Assembly: GCA_964637135.1 (NCBI GenBank)
Contig: CAZWTX010000003.1
Span: 62,001-126,000, forward strand
Source: an uncultured Methanospirillum sp.
GTDB taxonomy: Archaea > Halobacteriota > Methanomicrobia > Methanomicrobiales > Methanospirillaceae
Length of the DNA: 64,000 nucleotides
Direction: 5' to 3'
In this document: piece by piece, positions 14,765 through 26,412 of the stretch
Layout: every line of letters starts with the position of its first letter
How positions within the stretch are numbered: the stretch's first letter is position 1
Translations under genes and position numbers: made by a program
Notes under the pieces: generated by a model
The model's database searches: none
Seen by the model: only the letters and a program-made list of their open reading frames with translations
What the model was told of the DNA's origin: nothing

Positions 14765-15622
14765 TCAGGATGCCTGTTCCTTCCTCTGGAATACCTTCAG
14801 CATCGGTTTGTATGGTTTGAAGAGATGTTCCACGTCTTTGGCCATGTATTCTGACATCCCCATGATATAGAATCCGTCTTTTCCAAGACTTTCATATACC
14901 AGTTTCACGAGGTCTTTCTTCTGTTGTTCATTAAAATAAATGGTGACGTTACGGCAGGAGACCATATCGAAGGATTTCCCGATTTGAACCGCCTTCATCA
15001 GGTCATGTGGCTTGAACTGAACCATCTGCCTGAGATGATCCTTTACCGAGTATTTTCCATCCTCTAATTTGTCAAAATGACGGGATATCTGCACCTCAGA
15101 GAGGTTTTCAAGCGCATTTTTCTCATAAATCCCCTGCTTTGCCTTCTTTATCATCTCTTCATCGATATCAGTGGCAATTATTGCATTATTAAAGGTTATT
15201 CCTGACTTTCCGAGTTCATGCAGGATCAGGGCATACGTATACGGTTCTTCGCCAGATGAACATCCGGCACTCCAGATCTTGATCGTTCGTTTATCCCTGA
15301 GAACCGCAGGGAAGATCTCCTTTTTCACAAGATCAAAGACGTCAGGATCCCGGTAAAATTTCGTGACATTGATCGTGAGGGCATTGCGGAGTTTCTCCTC
15401 TTCCTCGGGATGGGTTTTAAGATACTGGAGGTACTCGACAAAATTCTTTGACCGGGTCGAATTCATCCTGGAGAGGAGCCTGCGTTTCACGTAATCCGGT
15501 TTATAATTAGATAAATGAATATTCAGCCGTTTTTCAACATCAAGAATGAGTTCGGGGAGACCTTTCTCACTTATCTGTGGTACATTAATGACAGGAAAGA
15601 CGGGGGGGAGTTTTTTATCCAT
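14765..15622 (-). CDS. cheR: Chemotaxis methyltransferase CheR
   Basis: TINVTKFYRD, IWSAGCSSGEEPYT, ATDID and CRNVTIYF motifs. Confidence 0.96.
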   Translation of the reverse strand: MDKKLPPVFPVINVPQISEKGLPELILDVEKRLNIHLSNYKPDYVKRRLLSRMNSTRSKNFVEYLQYLKTHPEEEEKLRNALTINVTKFYRDPDVFDLVKKEIFPAVLRDKRTIKIWSAGCSSGEEPYTYALILHELGKSGITFNNAIIATDIDEEMIKKAKQGIYEKNALENLSEVQISRHFDKLEDGKYSVKDHLRQMVQFKPHDLMKAVQIGKSFDMVSCRNVTIYFNEQQKKDLVKLVYESLGKDGFYIMGMSEYMAKDVEHLFKPYKPMLKVFQRKEQAS

Positions 15623-15649
15623 GGCTGGTGTTCCTTTCGGCGGGGATAT

Positions 15650-18418
15650 TCAGGAAGAACCCTGTATTCCGGACAATATCTCTCCCATATCCAGCCAGAT
15701 GACAAGCTGTGCCTTGTCCGTCTCGCCGCTACGCTTATCGAGGATATCATCCTGTGATATCTTAATTATCCCTTTGATATGAGTATGTATCTGAGCATTT
15801 ATATCCTCCCCAAGAGACGTGACCTGACGCACCGGTACCTCGGTTACACTTCTGACGGTATCCACGATGATGCCGACATGCTCACCCTGGGTGACATCTG
15901 ACGGGATGATGATGATCTTCTGACCGCTCCGATCCTTCCTGACACCTTCTCCCAGGAGAACAGCCAGATCGACAATATGGGTCACCTCGCCACGCAGGTT
16001 GATGATGCCTACCACGTACGGGGGCGTCTTGGGAAGCGGTGTAATCGGCAACATCTCAACTACTTCCCTGACCATCGAGATATCCATCGCATACCGCTCA
16101 CCGGTTAATTCAAACTCAACGATATCCACCTCACCGGTATGTGCTTCCTGTAGGGCGAACATTGACGACGTCTCTTCGGCATGCCTGCTTTTCAGAAGTT
16201 CAATCTCAGAACCCCGGGTTGTTAATTCGGTCTGAAGGGAAGAGATCCTCGTCACCGGGGCAGAGATGTCCACAAACTGGTGGAGTATCCGATCACCGGA
16301 TGGATCCATCCGGGCCGGGGTATGGAGGTAGATGTTCTGCCGGATCCTGACCGGCGGGTACAGGGATGAAAACCCATCAGGTGTCTGGACCGGTCTGATA
16401 CACTCACCAAGAGTCATCCCGGTTCCGGATGATGTATCAAGCCCCGCAGCCTCCCTGAAGGCATCATTACACAGGAGGATCCGTTCATCTGAATCGGTGA
16501 TTACCCCCGGACCGATGAGGCCGGAAAGATCCGGATTACAGGGAGCGATAGCCGTACCCAGGGAAGCGGGGGGAGACATTTCAGATTTTTTACCTTTGTC
16601 CGCTGTGGTCGCCGGATCTTCAGCCGTTGACTGGAGAATAAGGACTGATAGCCCGCCAGGAGAGGGTGCAGGGATGATCAGAACGGAGTATTCACCACGG
16701 CCCCACGGGGAATCAATCGTAATGGCTTTCTCAAGAAGAACAGGATCTGATGAGGATACATCGGTCGAGATACCGAGTTCAGCAAGATCTGAACCGGCGA
16801 GATCGGCAGATGAAAGACCCATTATTTCCGCGAATGACTCATTAACCGCGTATATCCGATGACCTGACGAGAATAATGCAGTCGGAGCCGGGCTCATATC
16901 GAGGAGAACCCGGGCAACATGGGAATCTCCGACCATATCCGTGCCCGGTACCTGCCGTTCCGCCCGATATTCTTCATTACGGGGGTTTACGGCCGGAGCG
17001 GGCGGGATATTGAGAGGAATCCGGGATTCGCCGGGCTGACCGGAGGAGGTGTCCTGGAGGATGAGAACTGAAAGATCGTCGTCGCTGCCCCCGGGAATGA
17101 TGAGAACGGAATATTCACCGCGGCCCCACGGGGAATCAAACGTGATCGTCCTGTCGAGGAGGATCGGTCCGCTTGCGGATATGTCAGCAGGGATTCCCAG
17201 TTCGACAAGATCTGACCCCGTCAGATCGGAAGATGAGAGACCCATGATCTCGGCGAACGATTCGTTGGATGCGAAGATCTTCAGGTCTCGTGAATACAGG
17301 GCTGCCGGGGCAGGATTCATATCAAGGAGAACCCGGGCAAGCTGGTGATCACCGGTCTGACCGGCATCAGATCCGTCCGGAGATTCAATTTGGCCATCCG
17401 GGGCGTCTGAGTCCGTTTCCACGCACACGAGGAGAAAATACGGATTATCTGATGCGGATCCCAGGGAATTTACCTCAAGCCAGACCTTTCCGGTAGCCCC
17501 GTCGTATCTCATAATCTCGGTTTCCATCGAAAGGGGCATGTCTGCTTCCTCCAGGGATCCAAGAGAGCGGACTTCAGGACCAAATCCACAACTCCCGATG
17601 TCCCGGAGATGCACCGTGCTCCGGTCCCTCCCGGTAAGGGACACAAATGCAAGATTTTCCATCCGGATGGTACCATGAGCGTCCAGGACCGCGGATGCAA
17701 CCGGAAAGAGATCAAACGCAACTGCTGCCGGATCACCACGGGGAAAGCCAGGTCGTTCCGGTTCTCCACCCTGCCCTGATAAACCATAGCCACGACCACT
17801 GGCGGACAGGGACTGTTCGACCAGTACCAGGAGCGTCGAGACATCATGATCAAACGGCAGGATCGGTGGCCTGATCGAAATGACCGAATATATCCTTCCG
17901 TCTGGACCCCGTGCCGGTTCATCATATGGAAGATACTGGGAGGCCGGGGGATGACTGGTGGTTATCTCGCTTCTCGAAACACCGAAAAGATCACAGAACG
18001 CTTCGTTTGCGTCATGAATCGCTCCATCAGTATCAGTAAGAACCATCGCCAGTTCATGGTACTGGAAGATCTCAAGTGCCCGGTCAAATTCCGTATGGGC
18101 AGTAATGAGGTCGTTGAGATACGAATCGTGCGTGGAGCGAAGCGTGTTCAGATCAGTCTCAAGGGTGGTGTAGAGTTCGTTGAGGCGGAGAATCTCCTCA
18201 TTCTGATCCTTAATCGTTCCGAGCAGTCTTTTAAGACGAAAAACCACAGGTTCAAAGATCGACGGGAGATCCGGTTCCTCCTCTTCAAGGGTAGCCAGGA
18301 CAGATACAGACTGCTCCAGTACATCCTCCGGGATTATTCCTTTCTTCTCTGGTTTCTTACCTGTGACTGCAAAAAGACCCTTCCTTCCGGAACCCTCCAT
18401 TTCATCCCCCTCAAACAT
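15650..18418 (-). CDS. 922-aa protein: coiled coil, several PAS-like domains, C-terminal CheW domain
   Basis: C-terminal IVEFEL..ERYAMDISMVREVV...ITPLPKTPPYVVGIINLRGEV is CheW. PAS-like segments include DGAIHDANEAFCDLFG, NESFAEIMG twice, and RILLCNDAFREAAG. Confidence 0.85.
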   Translation of the reverse strand: MFEGDEMEGSGRKGLFAVTGKKPEKKGIIPEDVLEQSVSVLATLEEEEPDLPSIFEPVVFRLKRLLGTIKDQNEEILRLNELYTTLETDLNTLRSTHDSYLNDLITAHTEFDRALEIFQYHELAMVLTDTDGAIHDANEAFCDLFGVSRSEITTSHPPASQYLPYDEPARGPDGRIYSVISIRPPILPFDHDVSTLLVLVEQSLSASGRGYGLSGQGGEPERPGFPRGDPAAVAFDLFPVASAVLDAHGTIRMENLAFVSLTGRDRSTVHLRDIGSCGFGPEVRSLGSLEEADMPLSMETEIMRYDGATGKVWLEVNSLGSASDNPYFLLVCVETDSDAPDGQIESPDGSDAGQTGDHQLARVLLDMNPAPAALYSRDLKIFASNESFAEIMGLSSSDLTGSDLVELGIPADISASGPILLDRTITFDSPWGRGEYSVLIIPGGSDDDLSVLILQDTSSGQPGESRIPLNIPPAPAVNPRNEEYRAERQVPGTDMVGDSHVARVLLDMSPAPTALFSSGHRIYAVNESFAEIMGLSSADLAGSDLAELGISTDVSSSDPVLLEKAITIDSPWGRGEYSVLIIPAPSPGGLSVLILQSTAEDPATTADKGKKSEMSPPASLGTAIAPCNPDLSGLIGPGVITDSDERILLCNDAFREAAGLDTSSGTGMTLGECIRPVQTPDGFSSLYPPVRIRQNIYLHTPARMDPSGDRILHQFVDISAPVTRISSLQTELTTRGSEIELLKSRHAEETSSMFALQEAHTGEVDIVEFELTGERYAMDISMVREVVEMLPITPLPKTPPYVVGIINLRGEVTHIVDLAVLLGEGVRKDRSGQKIIIIPSDVTQGEHVGIIVDTVRSVTEVPVRQVTSLGEDINAQIHTHIKGIIKISQDDILDKRSGETDKAQLVIWLDMGEILSGIQGSS
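16631..17338 (-). repeat. Intragenic duplication of a 285-bp PAS-like module (16631-16915 and 17054-17338)
   Basis: Two colinear 95-aa copies, about 70% identical by manual alignment, sharing NESFAEIMGLSS and DSPWGRGEYSVLIIP. Confidence 0.9.
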
Positions 18419-18427
18419 GGTATCCCC

Positions 18428-19276
18428 TTATCCCCACGTATCAATGATTTCTGCTGCCTGAACAAAAAAATCTGCTGCTGAATCTGAAACACCCGCGATC
18501 GTAAGGGGGATCCCCTGCTGGAGAGACCGGGCCAGGAGTTTGCTTTCAGGTATCCGGATTATCGCCGGAAAATGGTCATGAATCTCGTTTTCAACCATGA
18601 TCCTGATATCCATTGAATTCTGTTCAGGAACCGCAGGCGGAGACGAGAGATGGCGCCCGAGCCATCCGATAACCCCTCCGGGGGATGGTTTTTCAGGTTC
18701 AGACCACCGGTTCAGTATTGCCATCCCGGGAGGGACGCTCTTCCCGATAATGTCAGAGATGTCCTGCATGATTATCCGGATATTGCGGTATCCTGCCAGG
18801 GCAAAATTATCTGGTGAAAAGACAAAAACCAGTTTATCTGCAGCCATAATGCCGTTGATAACAAACTGGCCGAGAAACGGGGGGGTATCGATAAGGATGT
18901 GATCATACCGGTCATTGATCTTTGCGATCTCATCACCGAGGATCTGGTACCGGTGTTCATTCTGGTAGAGGTAGACCTCAACACCAGCGAGATCAAGATG
19001 GGACGGGACGAGATCAATCCCGGAGAGCGTGTGAACTATGCAGGAATCAATAGATATCCGGGGTTCATCATCCTGGCACCGGCTTATATAGAGGTGGTAG
19101 ATATTACGGGCAGGAGTATCGGGATGAACACCAAGACCGATCGTGGCATTCGCCTGTGGATCAGTGTCGATAACGAGTACCCGTCTTCCCTTCCGTACCA
19201 GGGCTCCGGCAATCTGAAGACACGAAGTAGTCTTGCCCGTTCCCCCCTTATGGTGCACAAAAGCAACTGTTGTCAA
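18428..19276 (-). CDS. parA: ParA/MinD-family ATPase (chemotaxis-associated)
   Basis: Deviant Walker A KGGTGKTT, VIDTDPQANAT and IDTPP. Start uncertain: TTG 19276 fits the TATA box at ~19311-19318 and a purine-rich RBS; the ORF extends to 19309. Confidence 0.9.
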   Translation of the reverse strand: MTTVAFVHHKGGTGKTTSCLQIAGALVRKGRRVLVIDTDPQANATIGLGVHPDTPARNIYHLYISRCQDDEPRISIDSCIVHTLSGIDLVPSHLDLAGVEVYLYQNEHRYQILGDEIAKINDRYDHILIDTPPFLGQFVINGIMAADKLVFVFSPDNFALAGYRNIRIIMQDISDIIGKSVPPGMAILNRWSEPEKPSPGGVIGWLGRHLSSPPAVPEQNSMDIRIMVENEIHDHFPAIIRIPESKLLARSLQQGIPLTIAGVSDSAADFFVQAAEIIDTWG

Positions 19277-19449
19277 AACACCCCTCTTACCGTACATGCG
19301 TGAATACACCTATATATAATTATTGAAATCTATCCCTGTCGGCAGTATCCTGCTCCGTGCTAATAAAAGAGTCTCCGTGTTTTACAGGATTTTTTTTTGA
19401 GAACCGGGTCATGAATACCTTTATCCATTACAGGACAGAATTCATCAAT

Positions 19450-20616
19450 ATGACCCTGAACAGGGACATCTTTGAACTTAGAAAGTTTGTAGCTCCGGAA
19501 TTGGTTTTCGGGGTCGGAGCCAGGCATCTTGCCGGCCAGTATGTAAAAAACTTTCAGACGGGAAAAATCCTCCTTGTTACTGATTCCGGGGTTCTCAGGA
19601 CGTCATCATTTGAAGATGTCAGGAAAAGCCTTGATGATTCAGGGATAGCTTATACCATATTTTCTGATATACAGCCAAACCCCCGTGCCGATTCGGTCAT
19701 GAAGGGGGCTGAACAATATGTATCCGGCGGATGCATGGGCATCCTTGTGATCGGAGGAGGATCAGCCATAGATTGTGCAAAAGGGATAGGGATAGTGAGT
19801 TCGAATAAGAAACATATTCTCGAATTTGAAGGGGTTGACCAGATACGCATCCCGGCTCCTCCCCTCATTTGTATCCCGACGACCTCGGGGAGCAGTGCTG
19901 ATGTATCCCAGTTTGCTATCATTACCGATCCGAAACGAAAAATAAAGATCGCGATCATCTCAAAAGCCCTTGTTCCCGATATTGCCCTCATTGATCCGGA
20001 AACCCTCCTTTCACTACCTTCTGATCTGACCCTCCACACCGTCCTTGATACTCTGACCCATGCGATTGAAGCATACGTCTCAAACGCCCATTCTTCAATG
20101 ACCGATATCCACGCCCTTGAGGCAGTCCGCCTGGTCACCAGGTACCTCCCCTATACCATCAAATACCCGGATAACCTGGAATACCGGGTATACACAATGC
20201 TCGCGAGTATGCACGCCGGATTAGCCTTTTCAAACGCGAGCCTCGGGGCAGTACACGCAATGGCCCACAGTCTTGGCGGCCTGTTGGATCTTCCCCACGG
20301 AATGTGCAATGGTCTGCTACTTCCGGCGGTGATCTCATTTAATTATGATGCCGTTCCTGACCGGTACGATCAGATCGGGGGTGCCATGGGAATAAGGATG
20401 GATGATATCAGGAAAGAAAACCGGAAAACCGCAATCCTGGATCATTTAAAGGCGTTTTACCAGGAACTCGGATTTAGTGTTTCCCTGAAAGACATGGGTG
20501 TGGATCCTGCCATGATACATGAACTGGCAATACATGCACTGGCCGATCCCTGCATGGTGACAAATCCACAACAACCAGGATTAGACGATATTGAATCCAT
20601 CTATGAATCTGCATAA
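19450..20616 (+). CDS. ercA: Iron-containing alcohol dehydrogenase-like protein, ErcA type
   Basis: LRKFVAPELVFG N-terminus typical of the ErcA subfamily, GGGSAIDCAK, and metal ligands DTLTH and HAMAH...PHG. Confidence 0.8.
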   Translation: MTLNRDIFELRKFVAPELVFGVGARHLAGQYVKNFQTGKILLVTDSGVLRTSSFEDVRKSLDDSGIAYTIFSDIQPNPRADSVMKGAEQYVSGGCMGILVIGGGSAIDCAKGIGIVSSNKKHILEFEGVDQIRIPAPPLICIPTTSGSSADVSQFAIITDPKRKIKIAIISKALVPDIALIDPETLLSLPSDLTLHTVLDTLTHAIEAYVSNAHSSMTDIHALEAVRLVTRYLPYTIKYPDNLEYRVYTMLASMHAGLAFSNASLGAVHAMAHSLGGLLDLPHGMCNGLLLPAVISFNYDAVPDRYDQIGGAMGIRMDDIRKENRKTAILDHLKAFYQELGFSVSLKDMGVDPAMIHELAIHALADPCMVTNPQQPGLDDIESIYESA

Positions 20617-22708
20617 TGACGAGAATGGTTCAGGAGACAACCTGAGAAACCGTATTATCGGGCTTGGATCTTCATCGCATCATAAGAGTTACTATCCTGA
20701 ACTGATGACGCGAATCTCCGAGCTTGAGCGGTTTCGAGCCCTTCTGCAGGAGACATCGGATGCGATCTTTCTGGTTAACCGTGATACCTGGCGGTTTACC
20801 GATATCAACCGATCCGGAATTGAGTTACTCGGGTCTACGCGGGAAAGACTTCTAGAAATGGATGTGAAAAAGGCTCTCGGGCCTGATTTCACGGAGATAT
20901 TCACCGAGCAGCAGGAATCCGGACCACACCAGTCACTTCAGGCAGAGATCGTGTTCCGGAAGAATGTTGAAAAAGATCGCTGTCTCGATGTAACCTCCCG
21001 GATTGTACAAACACCAGACGGAATTCACCAAGTTATCATCGCCAGGGACGTTACGGAACGGAAACTGGTTGAGGAGGAACTTGAGCAGTATCAGACCCAC
21101 CTCGAAGAACTGGTAGCCGAACGGAACGAAGAACTGATCGTCACCAACCAGGAACTGACCGGGGAGATAAAGCAGCGTATCAGAACCGAACAAGTCCTCA
21201 ATTTCGAGAAAGAACGCCTTGAACTTATTCTGAAAACAATCGACGATGCCGTCATTCTGACTACTCCGGGGGGAGCGATAACCTACCTCAACCGGGCAGC
21301 ACGGGACCTGCTCGGGTACTCTGCTCCCCTCGCCGGAGATAAAAACCTTGATGATCTTGTCGGGATGGGGAGTGACAAGACAATGATCCTTTTTTCCCGG
21401 GTTATCTCCGAAGCCGTGAAGAAAAATCACCCGGTTGATCTCGCAGACCAGAAACTCCACCTCCGGAAGACCGGTGCCCACCGGATAATTACCGGTTCAG
21501 TTTCCCCGGTGCTTGGTACGGAAAAGACGGAAGGGGTCGTCATCATCATCCGTGACATCACAGAACGACTCAGGATAGAACAGGAACTCGAGAAAGCAGA
21601 ACGTATCGAGTCCATAGGGCTTCTTGCCGGAGGAATCGCACATGATTTCAACAATGTCCTGACCTCTGTCATTGCGAATCTCGGACTCTGCGGTGAGCTG
21701 ATCAGACCGGAATCTCCGGCATTTTGCCACCTGGAAAAAGCAGAAGAAGCGATCTATCAGGCACGGAGACTGACCCAGCAGCTTCTTACCTTCTCAAAGG
21801 GTGGAGAACCCATAAAGGAATGCATCCATATTGAACCGTTAATCCGTGAGACCGCCGGTTTTGCATTGAGCGGGTCACGATCGATTGTTGAATACTCCTT
21901 TCAACCCGGTCTCTTCCCGGTTGATATCGACAGGACACAGATCAGCCAGGTAATTCAGAACCTGGTGCTGAATGCTGACCAGGCCATGGAAAACGGGGGA
22001 ACCATCAGGATTCATACAGAGAACATCACGGTCACACCTGAAAACGGCATTTTCCAGTTAAAAGACGGCGATTACATCAGAATATCAATCCAGGATGAAG
22101 GTTCCGGTATACCTGCCGATATCCTCACCCATATCTTCGATCCCTATTACTCTACGAAGGATACGGGTACCGGACTCGGACTTACCACGGTCCTGTTTAT
22201 CCTGAAAAAACACCATGGGACGATCGAAGTAGATTCAGCTGAGAAGAGAGGAACCCGATTCACCCTGTATCTTCCTGCATGTGCCGAAGAGGTAATTGTC
22301 TCCGATGAGCCGGAAAAACCCGTGGAAAAGCCATCGGCCACCGGTTCAGTGCTCCTGATGGATGATGAAGAAGGTATTCTGGACGTGATCTCAATCCTGC
22401 TCAGACGACACGGGTGGGAAGTGACTCCGGTAACCGATGGCCAGCAGGCAGTTGCAGCATATCAGGAATCTATGGAGAGAGGAAAACCGTACGATGTCAT
22501 AATCATGGATCTCGTTATCCCGGGGAGGATGGGTGGTAAGGATGCCATTGCAGAGATCCTGAAGATCAACCCAGATGTATTTGCGATTGTATCAAGCGGT
22601 TATTCCAAGGATCCTGTCATGGCCGAACCGGAGAAATATGGCTTTTCCCGCGTTCTTCCAAAACCATACAAAATTCAGGATCTTCTCAATCTCATGAAAC
22701 CGACATGA
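20603..22708 (+). CDS. Cytoplasmic hybrid histidine kinase (PAS-PAS-HisKA-HATPase-REC), ErcS-like
   Basis: N-terminal IIGLG...KSYYPEL, H-box AGGIAHDFNN, N-box NLVLNA, G-boxes DEGSGI and GTGLGL, receiver MDDE...IMDL...KPY; overlaps ercA by 14 nt. Confidence 0.9.
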   Translation: MNLHNDENGSGDNLRNRIIGLGSSSHHKSYYPELMTRISELERFRALLQETSDAIFLVNRDTWRFTDINRSGIELLGSTRERLLEMDVKKALGPDFTEIFTEQQESGPHQSLQAEIVFRKNVEKDRCLDVTSRIVQTPDGIHQVIIARDVTERKLVEEELEQYQTHLEELVAERNEELIVTNQELTGEIKQRIRTEQVLNFEKERLELILKTIDDAVILTTPGGAITYLNRAARDLLGYSAPLAGDKNLDDLVGMGSDKTMILFSRVISEAVKKNHPVDLADQKLHLRKTGAHRIITGSVSPVLGTEKTEGVVIIIRDITERLRIEQELEKAERIESIGLLAGGIAHDFNNVLTSVIANLGLCGELIRPESPAFCHLEKAEEAIYQARRLTQQLLTFSKGGEPIKECIHIEPLIRETAGFALSGSRSIVEYSFQPGLFPVDIDRTQISQVIQNLVLNADQAMENGGTIRIHTENITVTPENGIFQLKDGDYIRISIQDEGSGIPADILTHIFDPYYSTKDTGTGLGLTTVLFILKKHHGTIEVDSAEKRGTRFTLYLPACAEEVIVSDEPEKPVEKPSATGSVLLMDDEEGILDVISILLRRHGWEVTPVTDGQQAVAAYQESMERGKPYDVIIMDLVIPGRMGGKDAIAEILKINPDVFAIVSSGYSKDPVMAEPEKYGFSRVLPKPYKIQDLLNLMKPT

Positions 22709-23301
22709 AAGGAAGCAGTATCAGGGATCATTATGCCCATAAACCTGACTGTCCTGATACATCCCGGGAGTCAGTGGATGACACCTACATGGTTGTGGGT
22801 CTGAATCCTGTTATCTCCCCTGAATCTCGCATCCTTATCCTTGGAAGTTTTCCATCGGTAATCTCGCTGCGTGCCGGGGAATACTATGCCAATCCGAGAA
22901 ACCAGTTCTGGAAGATCATGAGCAGCATTGTGGGATTCTCCCCCATGGAGTCATACCAGGTACGGACAGCTGCCCTGTTAAAACATGGTATCGGCCTGTG
23001 GGATATATATCAATCCTGTATCAGGAAAGGAAGCCTTGATACTATGATTCAAAGCCCGGTCCATACCGATCTCGAAGGGGTGATCCAAACCCTGCCGGCG
23101 ATACGTGTTGTTGTTCTGAATGGAAGGAAGGCTGAACAGGGCTGGATACACTGGACAAAAACAGTCCCATCGGCACGGTGTCCGTCTGTCAGGGCGATTT
23201 ATCTTCCTTCGACAAGTCCGGCCAATACCCTCCCGTTTGTAGAAAAACAGAAAAGATGGGAAGTACTGATTCGTGGTCTCCTGTCAGAAATGCCGAAGTG
23301 A
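22705..23301 (+). CDS. DNA-deoxyinosine (hypoxanthine) glycosylase, UDG superfamily
   Basis: LILGSFPS, YYANPRNQFW, GLWD and LPSTSPAN motifs; real start may be ATG 22789. Confidence 0.88.
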   Translation: MKGSSIRDHYAHKPDCPDTSRESVDDTYMVVGLNPVISPESRILILGSFPSVISLRAGEYYANPRNQFWKIMSSIVGFSPMESYQVRTAALLKHGIGLWDIYQSCIRKGSLDTMIQSPVHTDLEGVIQTLPAIRVVVLNGRKAEQGWIHWTKTVPSARCPSVRAIYLPSTSPANTLPFVEKQKRWEVLIRGLLSEMPK

Positions 23302-25815: not shown

Positions 25816-26412
25816 ATGAACCACCCTGAATCACAGAGCACGACGTTCATTTCAGAGATTACCGCGAATCCTGCACCACTCGGGCTGCTTGGATTTGGTA
25901 TGACCACCGTCCTCCTTAACCTGCATAATGCAGGACTGTTCACTCTTGGATCGATGATCCTTGCCATGGGGATTTTTTATGGAGGGATTGCACAGATCAT
26001 CGCAGGAATTATGGAATGGAAGAAGAACAACACCTTCGGTGCCACGGCGTTCACTTCCTACGGACTCTTCTGGATGACGCTGGTGGCCCTGCTCATTCTC
26101 CCCCAGCTTGGTCTTGCAGAAGGAACCGGCGGTGACCTGGCAATGGCATCCTACTTCATCATGTGGGGGCTTTTTACCGGAGTTATGTTCTTTGGAACCC
26201 TGAAAGCAAACCGTGCCCTGCAGTTTGTCTTCGGATCACTGACGATTCTCTTCTTCCTGCTTGCTATCGGGGATATCACCGGAATAGAATCGGTAACCTT
26301 CCTTGCCGGGATCGTCGGGATCATTTGTGGATTCTCCGCGGTATACACCGGTCTGGCCCAGGTCATCAACGAGGCTCATAACCGGGTAATCCTTCCGATC
26401 TGGCCGGTATAA
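25816..26412 (+). CDS. satP: Acetate uptake channel, GPR1/FUN34/YaaH (SatP) family
   Basis: [12 protein letters not shown] signature, [16 protein letters not shown], six TM helices. Confidence 0.93.

Follow-up and report, generated by a model that had tools for sequence, protein, structure and literature searches.

The closest described systems to the gene pair analysed here are YiaY-YiaZ of Pseudomonas putida (PP_2682/PP_2683) and ErcA-ErcS of Pseudomonas aeruginosa (PA1991/PA1992), in which the gene of an ErcA-family iron-containing alcohol dehydrogenase (Fe-ADH) likewise overlaps that of a hybrid histidine kinase. According to the part of the P. putida study that was available (PMC12551699), the ErcA protein YiaY and YiaZ co-elute when co-expressed, and both the 14 N-terminal residues and H281 of YiaY are required for signalling alcohols and diols, whereas acetate, glycerol and succinate evoke no response. 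The same part reports no measurable breakdown of bulk substrate by YiaY, a model that invokes the aldehyde product, an interface between the two proteins predicted at low confidence, and, for the pair, close homologs in 20 Pseudomonad genomes but in no other genera, weaker ones being possibly included in data S4. The signalling mechanism of ErcA is described as unresolved in the accessible portion of a review (PMC12997753), which draws a comparison with NosP-NahK, where a separate sensor protein likewise modulates a hybrid kinase; ErcA is not mentioned in PMC13541210. No literature on an ErcA-kinase module in archaea or on the peptide described below was found in a search whose coverage stopped short of subscription journals. 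Here, we describe such a pair in a stretch of 64,000 nucleotides (nt) of an uncultured Methanospirillum sp. (assembly GCA_964637135.1, contig CAZWTX010000003.1, positions 62,001 to 126,000), hereafter the window, in which a soluble hybrid kinase quite probably has the dehydrogenase as its sensing subunit, the latter being predicted to bind an N-terminal peptide of this kinase. The features of the pair are the following:

19450..20616, plus strand: ErcA-type iron-containing alcohol dehydrogenase (ADH), 388 aa (NCBIfam NF041833, Pfam Fe-ADH)
19474..19500, plus strand: ErcA-specific N-terminal segment ELRKFVAPE, residues 9-17, a candidate kinase-facing surface (alignment)
20603..22708, plus strand: soluble hybrid histidine kinase of 701 aa, in the order peptide-PAS-PAS-HisKA-HATPase-receiver (REC), with a CckA/AtoS-like core (Pfam, NCBIfam)
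20645..20734, plus strand: ErcA-associated conserved peptide, kinase residues 15-44, R..IIGLG...S..KSYYPEL followed by a helix (alignments)
21620..22279, plus strand: HisKA (H347) and HATPase domains of the kinase (Pfam)
22349..22693, plus strand: receiver domain of the kinase with D636 (Pfam)

Both open reading frames (ORFs) lie on the plus strand and overlap by 14 nt, so that the layout proposed by the initial annotation, an Fe-ADH gene with intact NAD and metal motifs overlapping that of a soluble PAS-PAS-HisKA-HATPase-REC kinase, was confirmed. In-frame alternative starts of the ADH exist upstream at 19357 and 19411, and the alignment of relatives favours 19450. The host is a methanogen, as mcrA is present in its genome, and the ADH is the sole full-length Fe-ADH found in the assembly (a single blastp match in the genome). 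The window pair shares with the Pseudomonas pair the conserved ErcA N-terminus, the catalytic histidines and a stretch of about 40 residues ahead of the first PAS domain of the kinase (the PAS of YiaZ spans residues 40-164). It differs from it in its archaeal host, in a CckA/AtoS-like rather than NahK/ErcS kinase core, in the presence of two PAS domains and in the absence of a pyrroloquinoline quinone (PQQ) or ped cluster and of an adjacent regulator. Compared to NosP-NahK, the putative sensor is here a redox enzyme, and its tag is also found on enzymes of cyclic di-GMP (c-di-GMP) metabolism.

Assignment of the ADH to the ErcA family rather than to the catabolic AdhE or YqhD enzymes, as had been anticipated, was clear from its profile scores: it passed the NCBIfam ErcA model NF041833 (584.7 bits vs. 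a cut-off of 550) and failed those of AdhE (235.8 vs. 951 bits) and YqhD (84.2 vs. 645 bits), and it is a single-domain protein without the aldehyde dehydrogenase domain of AdhE. In a tree built with FastTree from 100 sequences, with four Fno-linked Fe-ADHs as the root and AdhE and YqhD outside it, the window ADH falls among ErcA proteins in a clade of nine (support 0.992). Its closest named relatives are from Methanospirillum (65-66% identity), and NCBI already labels ErcA proteins in Methanospirillum, Methanoregula, Methanofollis, Methanocella and Methanobacterium. The GGGS motif (residues 102-105) and the metal ligands D200, H204, H269 and H283 are invariant in two alignments, and an AlphaFold2 (AF2) model of the protein (predicted local distance difference test, pLDDT, of 96) superposes on methanol dehydrogenase 2 and Zymomonas mobilis ADH2 with a template modelling (TM) score of 0.95. 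At the N-terminus, R11, K12, P16 and E17 are invariant in 86 sequences, and R11, K12 and E17 are not present in the four Fno-linked Fe-ADHs; further ErcA-specific changes cluster beside the active site (A150-Q154). By score and tree position, therefore, the window ADH belongs to the ErcA family. The Fno-linked Fe-ADHs of Methanomicrobiales, which are likely catabolic, have the same fold and metal site and 36-40% identity to the window ADH, but lack both the ELRKFV N-terminus and a peptide-bearing neighbour.

The kinase keeps H347, the N, G1, F and G2 boxes and D587, D588, D636 and K687, and is soluble as judged by the absence of any 19-residue segment with hydropathy above 1.23; its HisKA domain falls under the Pfam cut-off (21.8 vs. 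26.9 bits) with an intact H-box. The peptide at its N-terminus (IIGLG at residues 18-22, KSYYPEL at 28-34) occurs once in the host genome and represents a rare form without the usual Glu after GLG: of 86 paired peptides, 81 have Glu at this position and two have Asp, and Ser, Thr or Ala is confined to the three kinases of the window's clade. No convincing family match was found for it in Pfam (28 seed sequences), the NF041833 model naming ErcA alone, and matches to it in the ESM Atlas were all below 0.9. A profile of the peptide matched 1284 protein clusters at 50% identity, and in all 150 matches listed it lies within the first 90 residues.

The link between the KSYYPEL peptide and ErcA neighbours, proposed in the initial annotation, held in three sets of loci. 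Among 61 Methanomicrobiales genomes, in which 45 ErcA-type copies or fragments were counted alongside 48 peptide matches, a peptide gene lies directly downstream of 38 of the 45 ErcA-type copies and of none of the eight other Fe-ADHs, and the copy numbers of both elements are equal in 37 of the 40 genomes having either. Six of these eight instead adjoin an F420:NADP oxidoreductase-type gene (two neighbours Pfam-confirmed). The second set, 301 phylum genomes partly shared with the first and with peptide and ADH paired by hand, has the peptide in 46, each with an ErcA-type gene: every one of the 32 whose ADH exceeds the ErcA cut-off, 12 whose full-length ADH scores just under it (454-550 bits, ErcA N-terminus included) and two with fragments. 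A further 76 genomes have Fe-ADHs (E 1e-60 or better) of other kinds only, and the peptide was found in none of them. Finally, among at least 120 metagenome loci found with a strict DNA pattern that favours the canonical form, an ErcA C-terminus lies directly upstream of the peptide in 113 of 120 among the matches listed; three of the seven misses have more than 2 kb of other DNA upstream and four have less than 450 bp available. The peptide is thus the best candidate for the ErcA-kinase link and likely its docking site, as predicted from these sequences. In two loci (L193:4142-7905 and L035), a single ErcA gene is flanked by two peptide-bearing genes; the upstream peptide of L193 precedes the first ATG chosen by the script, so that the gene start is uncertain. 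In another (L062, G028 C1:1750393-1751368), frameshifts interrupt the second copy of ErcA, and its peptide kinase is intact.

What stands behind the peptide varies widely. Of the 119 closest relatives of the window kinase's core, just six have the peptide, while the outputs fronted by it include HisKA, HisKA_2, BarA-like, CckA-like, GGDEF-EAL and HD-GYP proteins, and a scan of 44 matches, picked from 149 mainly for having no motif-detected kinase, revealed two GGDEF-EAL, six HD-GYP-type and one GGDEF-HD proteins, seven HisKA_2 kinases and one DUF835 protein. Enzymes of c-di-GMP metabolism are encoded directly behind ErcA in four loci (L080, L118, L127 and L138) and in Acetoanaerobium noterae; the sequence of the latter (NZ_CP154629.1, L192) is filed as a plasmid and, at 2.6 Mb, is chromosome-like by size. 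The 22 methanogen partners scanned comprise hybrid kinases, PAS-less kinases and PAS proteins without an ATPase domain, and in three partners (L003, L008 and L015) only the peptide, a coiled coil and the kinase were detected, with no detectable PAS. Many methanogen ErcA partners of 350-400 aa have PAS domains, in some cases a weak HisKA match, and no ATPase domain (L020, L023, L026, L028, L030, L034-L037, L001 and L017). By source names, the ErcA of such cassettes comes from Methanofollis, Methanocella, Methanobacterium, Rhodocyclaceae and Opitutaceae. Because it is found on unrelated output enzymes in other genomes, the peptide is, at the level of sequence, a portable input tag.

The two elements also occur in a single chain. 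In the size range of 691-2000 residues, the nine top-ranking proteins were ErcA-output fusions, eight with kinases and one with GGDEF-EAL, of which seven look genuine and four of these seven have a clear peptide. Three related proteins (P0405-P0407) combine an intact ADH with a linker of 35-40 residues and the peptide, the latter at E about 1e-9 to 6e-9, P0410 retains the peptide at E 2e-18, and in P0411-P0413 the peptide is degenerate (E 0.0009 to 0.25). In a single-chain AF2 model of P0405, built with eight fusion rows in the alignment and no contact output, the linker and the peptide had pLDDT below 50. P0408 and P0409, whose ADH has an aberrant C-terminus, were left aside for this reason as likely frameshift joins, and P0054 looks like an assembly duplication. 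Among longer homologs, Fe-ADH was also seen fused to FIST domains and to aldehyde:ferredoxin oxidoreductase (P0420; P0443, P0466 and others).

In relatives of the host, the kinase can be lost while ErcA stays. The gene order ParA-ErcA-kinase-glycosylase is kept in G008 and G011; six genomes (G006, G007, G012, G018, G020 and G024) have lost the kinase here, and their full-length ErcA gene runs into that of the glycosylase, and G003 shows the same join with ErcA cut by the contig end. All seven kinase-loss genomes keep ErcA (six full-length) and have one stand-alone peptide kinase elsewhere. In six of these seven kinases, Ala or Ser follows GLG and a His stands three residues on, as in the window kinase, and the kinase bodies compared, that of G003 being outside the comparison, resemble the kinases of another clade. 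The stand-alone kinases would fit a partner switch with a matching peptide. A broader proposal, slightly favoured in our judgement, is that ErcA and the peptide of 30 residues together make up an input module, portable and cross-domain, for outputs that include several classes of kinase, diguanylate cyclases and phosphodiesterases, acting in cis, in trans or fused, that one or two positions of the peptide would serve as a specificity code, and that an unrelated kinase would have taken over, by adopting the matching variant, after deletion of the clade's own kinase.

As the peptide accompanies the ErcA family across archaea and bacteria, the enzyme is likely a plug-in sensor of alcohol or redox state, and by analogy the window pair likely works like YiaY-YiaZ; the suggestion that the ADH acts as an enzyme-sensor has experimental backing in P. 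putida, in the part of PMC12551699 cited above. In the mechanism that we propose, ErcA would bind Fe and NAD and bind or oxidise a short-chain alcohol, and a cofactor-dependent change of shape would be passed through its N-terminal ELRKFV segment to the kinase peptide. The peptide helix, predicted to continue into the first PAS domain, would then set autophosphorylation of H347 and transfer to D636, and the signal would be received by an unlinked regulator. No response regulator is adjacent, as previously remarked, the gene after the kinase encoding a deoxyinosine glycosylase, and no cognate regulator can be named; within long ORFs of the host genome, 64 matches to receiver domains and two to Hpt were counted. 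Regarding the output, our guess is that a general one (motility or physiology toward fermenting partners) is likelier than a dedicated alcohol-oxidation operon.

Several observations weigh against these proposals. The genomes are kin, so that all peptide and ErcA counts are inflated and overstate independence. The kinase failed the NahK/ErcS model NF041832 (65.2 bits vs. a cut-off of 400), and, in a scan of 34 peptide-bearing partners, not one matched the NahK/ErcS model at E 1e-62. The window kinase scored best on the CckA and AtoS models, below the cut-offs of both, and the closest relatives of its core are five orthologs at 55-59% identity followed by proteins at 45-53% with mostly bacterial source names. 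By these scores, the kinase lies outside the ErcS family, and the label ErcS-like of the initial annotation applies only loosely because the kinase body belongs to another class; what stands of it is the PAS-HisKA-HATPase-REC order with intact phosphorylation sites, as in the NahK/ErcS layout. YiaZ and ErcS were compared through their published description rather than by sequence, the Pseudomonas ErcA and ErcS sequences not having been found among plasmids, viral contigs or in the supplement PDF of PMC12551699. Regarding the partner switch, the kinase loss may be a single event and the match rests on two positions, whereas the stand-alone peptides as a whole are closer to those of the other clade (17-19 vs. 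14-18 of 26 identities). Moreover, G012 is off the pattern, G008 has a stand-alone peptide kinase yet keeps its own kinase, and G010 has a stand-alone peptide kinase and no ErcA found in a genome that is 73% complete.

The expected tie to alcohol-using Methanomicrobiales proved weak, and this too weighs against the proposals. An Adf-like gene (E 1e-60 or better) was found in 11 of the 40 peptide-bearing genomes and not in the other 29, and M. stamsii, which has an NCBI-named ErcA, has no adf and shows no growth with 2-propanol, as given in Table 3 of PMC11346949. The host genome (97.7% complete) gave no match for a Zn-ADH or an aldehyde:ferredoxin oxidoreductase. It carries a Fno homolog and an Adf-related gene (G000 C47:9795-10763; L204:1240-2208, minus strand; E 5e-68 to 1RHC), the latter being just 41-44% identical to the main Adf-like group of its relatives and belonging to a separate subfamily of F420-dependent oxidoreductases, 71-79% identical to genes of G009 and G032. 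Judged by gene content, therefore, the occurrence of the module does not follow that of known alcohol catabolism, and the link is weak. Neighbours of the loci were unconserved: among 199 neighbouring ORFs no recurring metabolic gene was found, and the largest cluster comprised 15 ORFs in 12 loci, signalling proteins by eye. The loci L038-L043 hold non-ErcA Fe-ADHs that adjoin F420:NADP oxidoreductase-type genes, some near an aldehyde oxidoreductase-like gene, and are likely alcohol-oxidation loci.

The same complex could also serve another signal, ErcA reporting the NADH/NAD ratio or an aldehyde instead of a usable alcohol, which we regard as unlikely. Against it, methanogens encounter alcohols from fermenting neighbours whether they use them or not. 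The presence of the module in many methanogens without known alcohol-oxidation genes, the ErcA-specific changes near the active site and the aldehyde product included in the P. putida model itself speak for this alternative, but the sole tested members answer alcohols and diols and not the other three compounds, as far as reported in the accessible part of PMC12551699.

A good deal less probable is a purely structural peptide, which would cap the output protein or help it dimerise and would travel with ErcA only because both genes move as one cassette. The overlap between ErcA and partner genes is nearly fixed at 17 nt in most relatives, which favours joint inheritance, and a few peptide genes stand alone behind more than 2 kb of unrelated upstream DNA (L094, L106 and L142). 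However, the conserved residues of the peptide begin about 10 codons beyond the overlap, the peptide is retained while all the sequence behind it is swapped, 113 of the 119 close kinase-core relatives are without it, and both the stand-alone kinases and the fusions still have it. Least probable of all, and very unlikely, is an ordinary catabolic or detoxifying ADH sharing a transcript with a kinase whose sensing relies on the two PAS domains of its own: the catalytic residues are all intact and no second full-length Fe-ADH was found in the assembly, but the ErcA score is far above that of any catabolic model, the protein is apart from the Fno-linked ADHs in the tree, some partners lack detectable PAS domains and YiaY degrades no measurable bulk substrate in the portion of the P. 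putida work cited.

The surroundings of the pair in the window, considered apart from the sensing proposal, comprise:

14765..19309, minus strand: divergent ParA-like, PAS-CheW and CheR genes (Pfam), the ParA-like gene being linked to the window's ErcA clade in relatives
19310..19449, no strand: intergenic stretch between the divergent ParA-like and ErcA genes, with TATATATAA at 19311-19319 (sequence)
22705..23301, plus strand: DNA-deoxyinosine glycosylase (TIGR04274, 161.8 bits), with a 4-nt overlap with the kinase

The TATATATAA element may have a promoter role. The glycosylase is a synteny marker that follows the window's ErcA clade in relatives whether the kinase is present or not, and no sign of a functional link to the pair was found. 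The ParA-like ATPase lies beside CheR and a multi-PAS protein of 922 aa whose C-terminal domain is a CheW, and the ParA-like/PAS-CheW pair presumably resembles a chemoreceptor positioning pair of the ParC/ParP type. The ParA linkage to ErcA is kept within the genus; it may hint at motility, plain synteny being also possible. A GPR1/FUN34/YaaH (acetate channel) gene lies 3 kb downstream of the kinase (25816-26412, plus strand), with no evidence of a link. The G+C content of the locus (49-50% vs. 52% genome-wide) is similar to that of other nearby genes, and its base composition gives no clear sign of recent transfer.

The ADH-kinase complex was presented in 2025 as unreported elsewhere and confined to Pseudomonas, in the part of PMC12551699 available, whereas the peptide widens its range to more than 1000 protein clusters in methanogens and anaerobic bacteria. 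The peptide also names a likely docking site and makes the question of ErcA signalling testable with a short peptide. If the proposal is true, it would define a new intracellular sensor input and provide a graftable alcohol-sensing tag for biosensors, and methanogens may use the module to monitor alcohols or redox signals of their fermenting partners.

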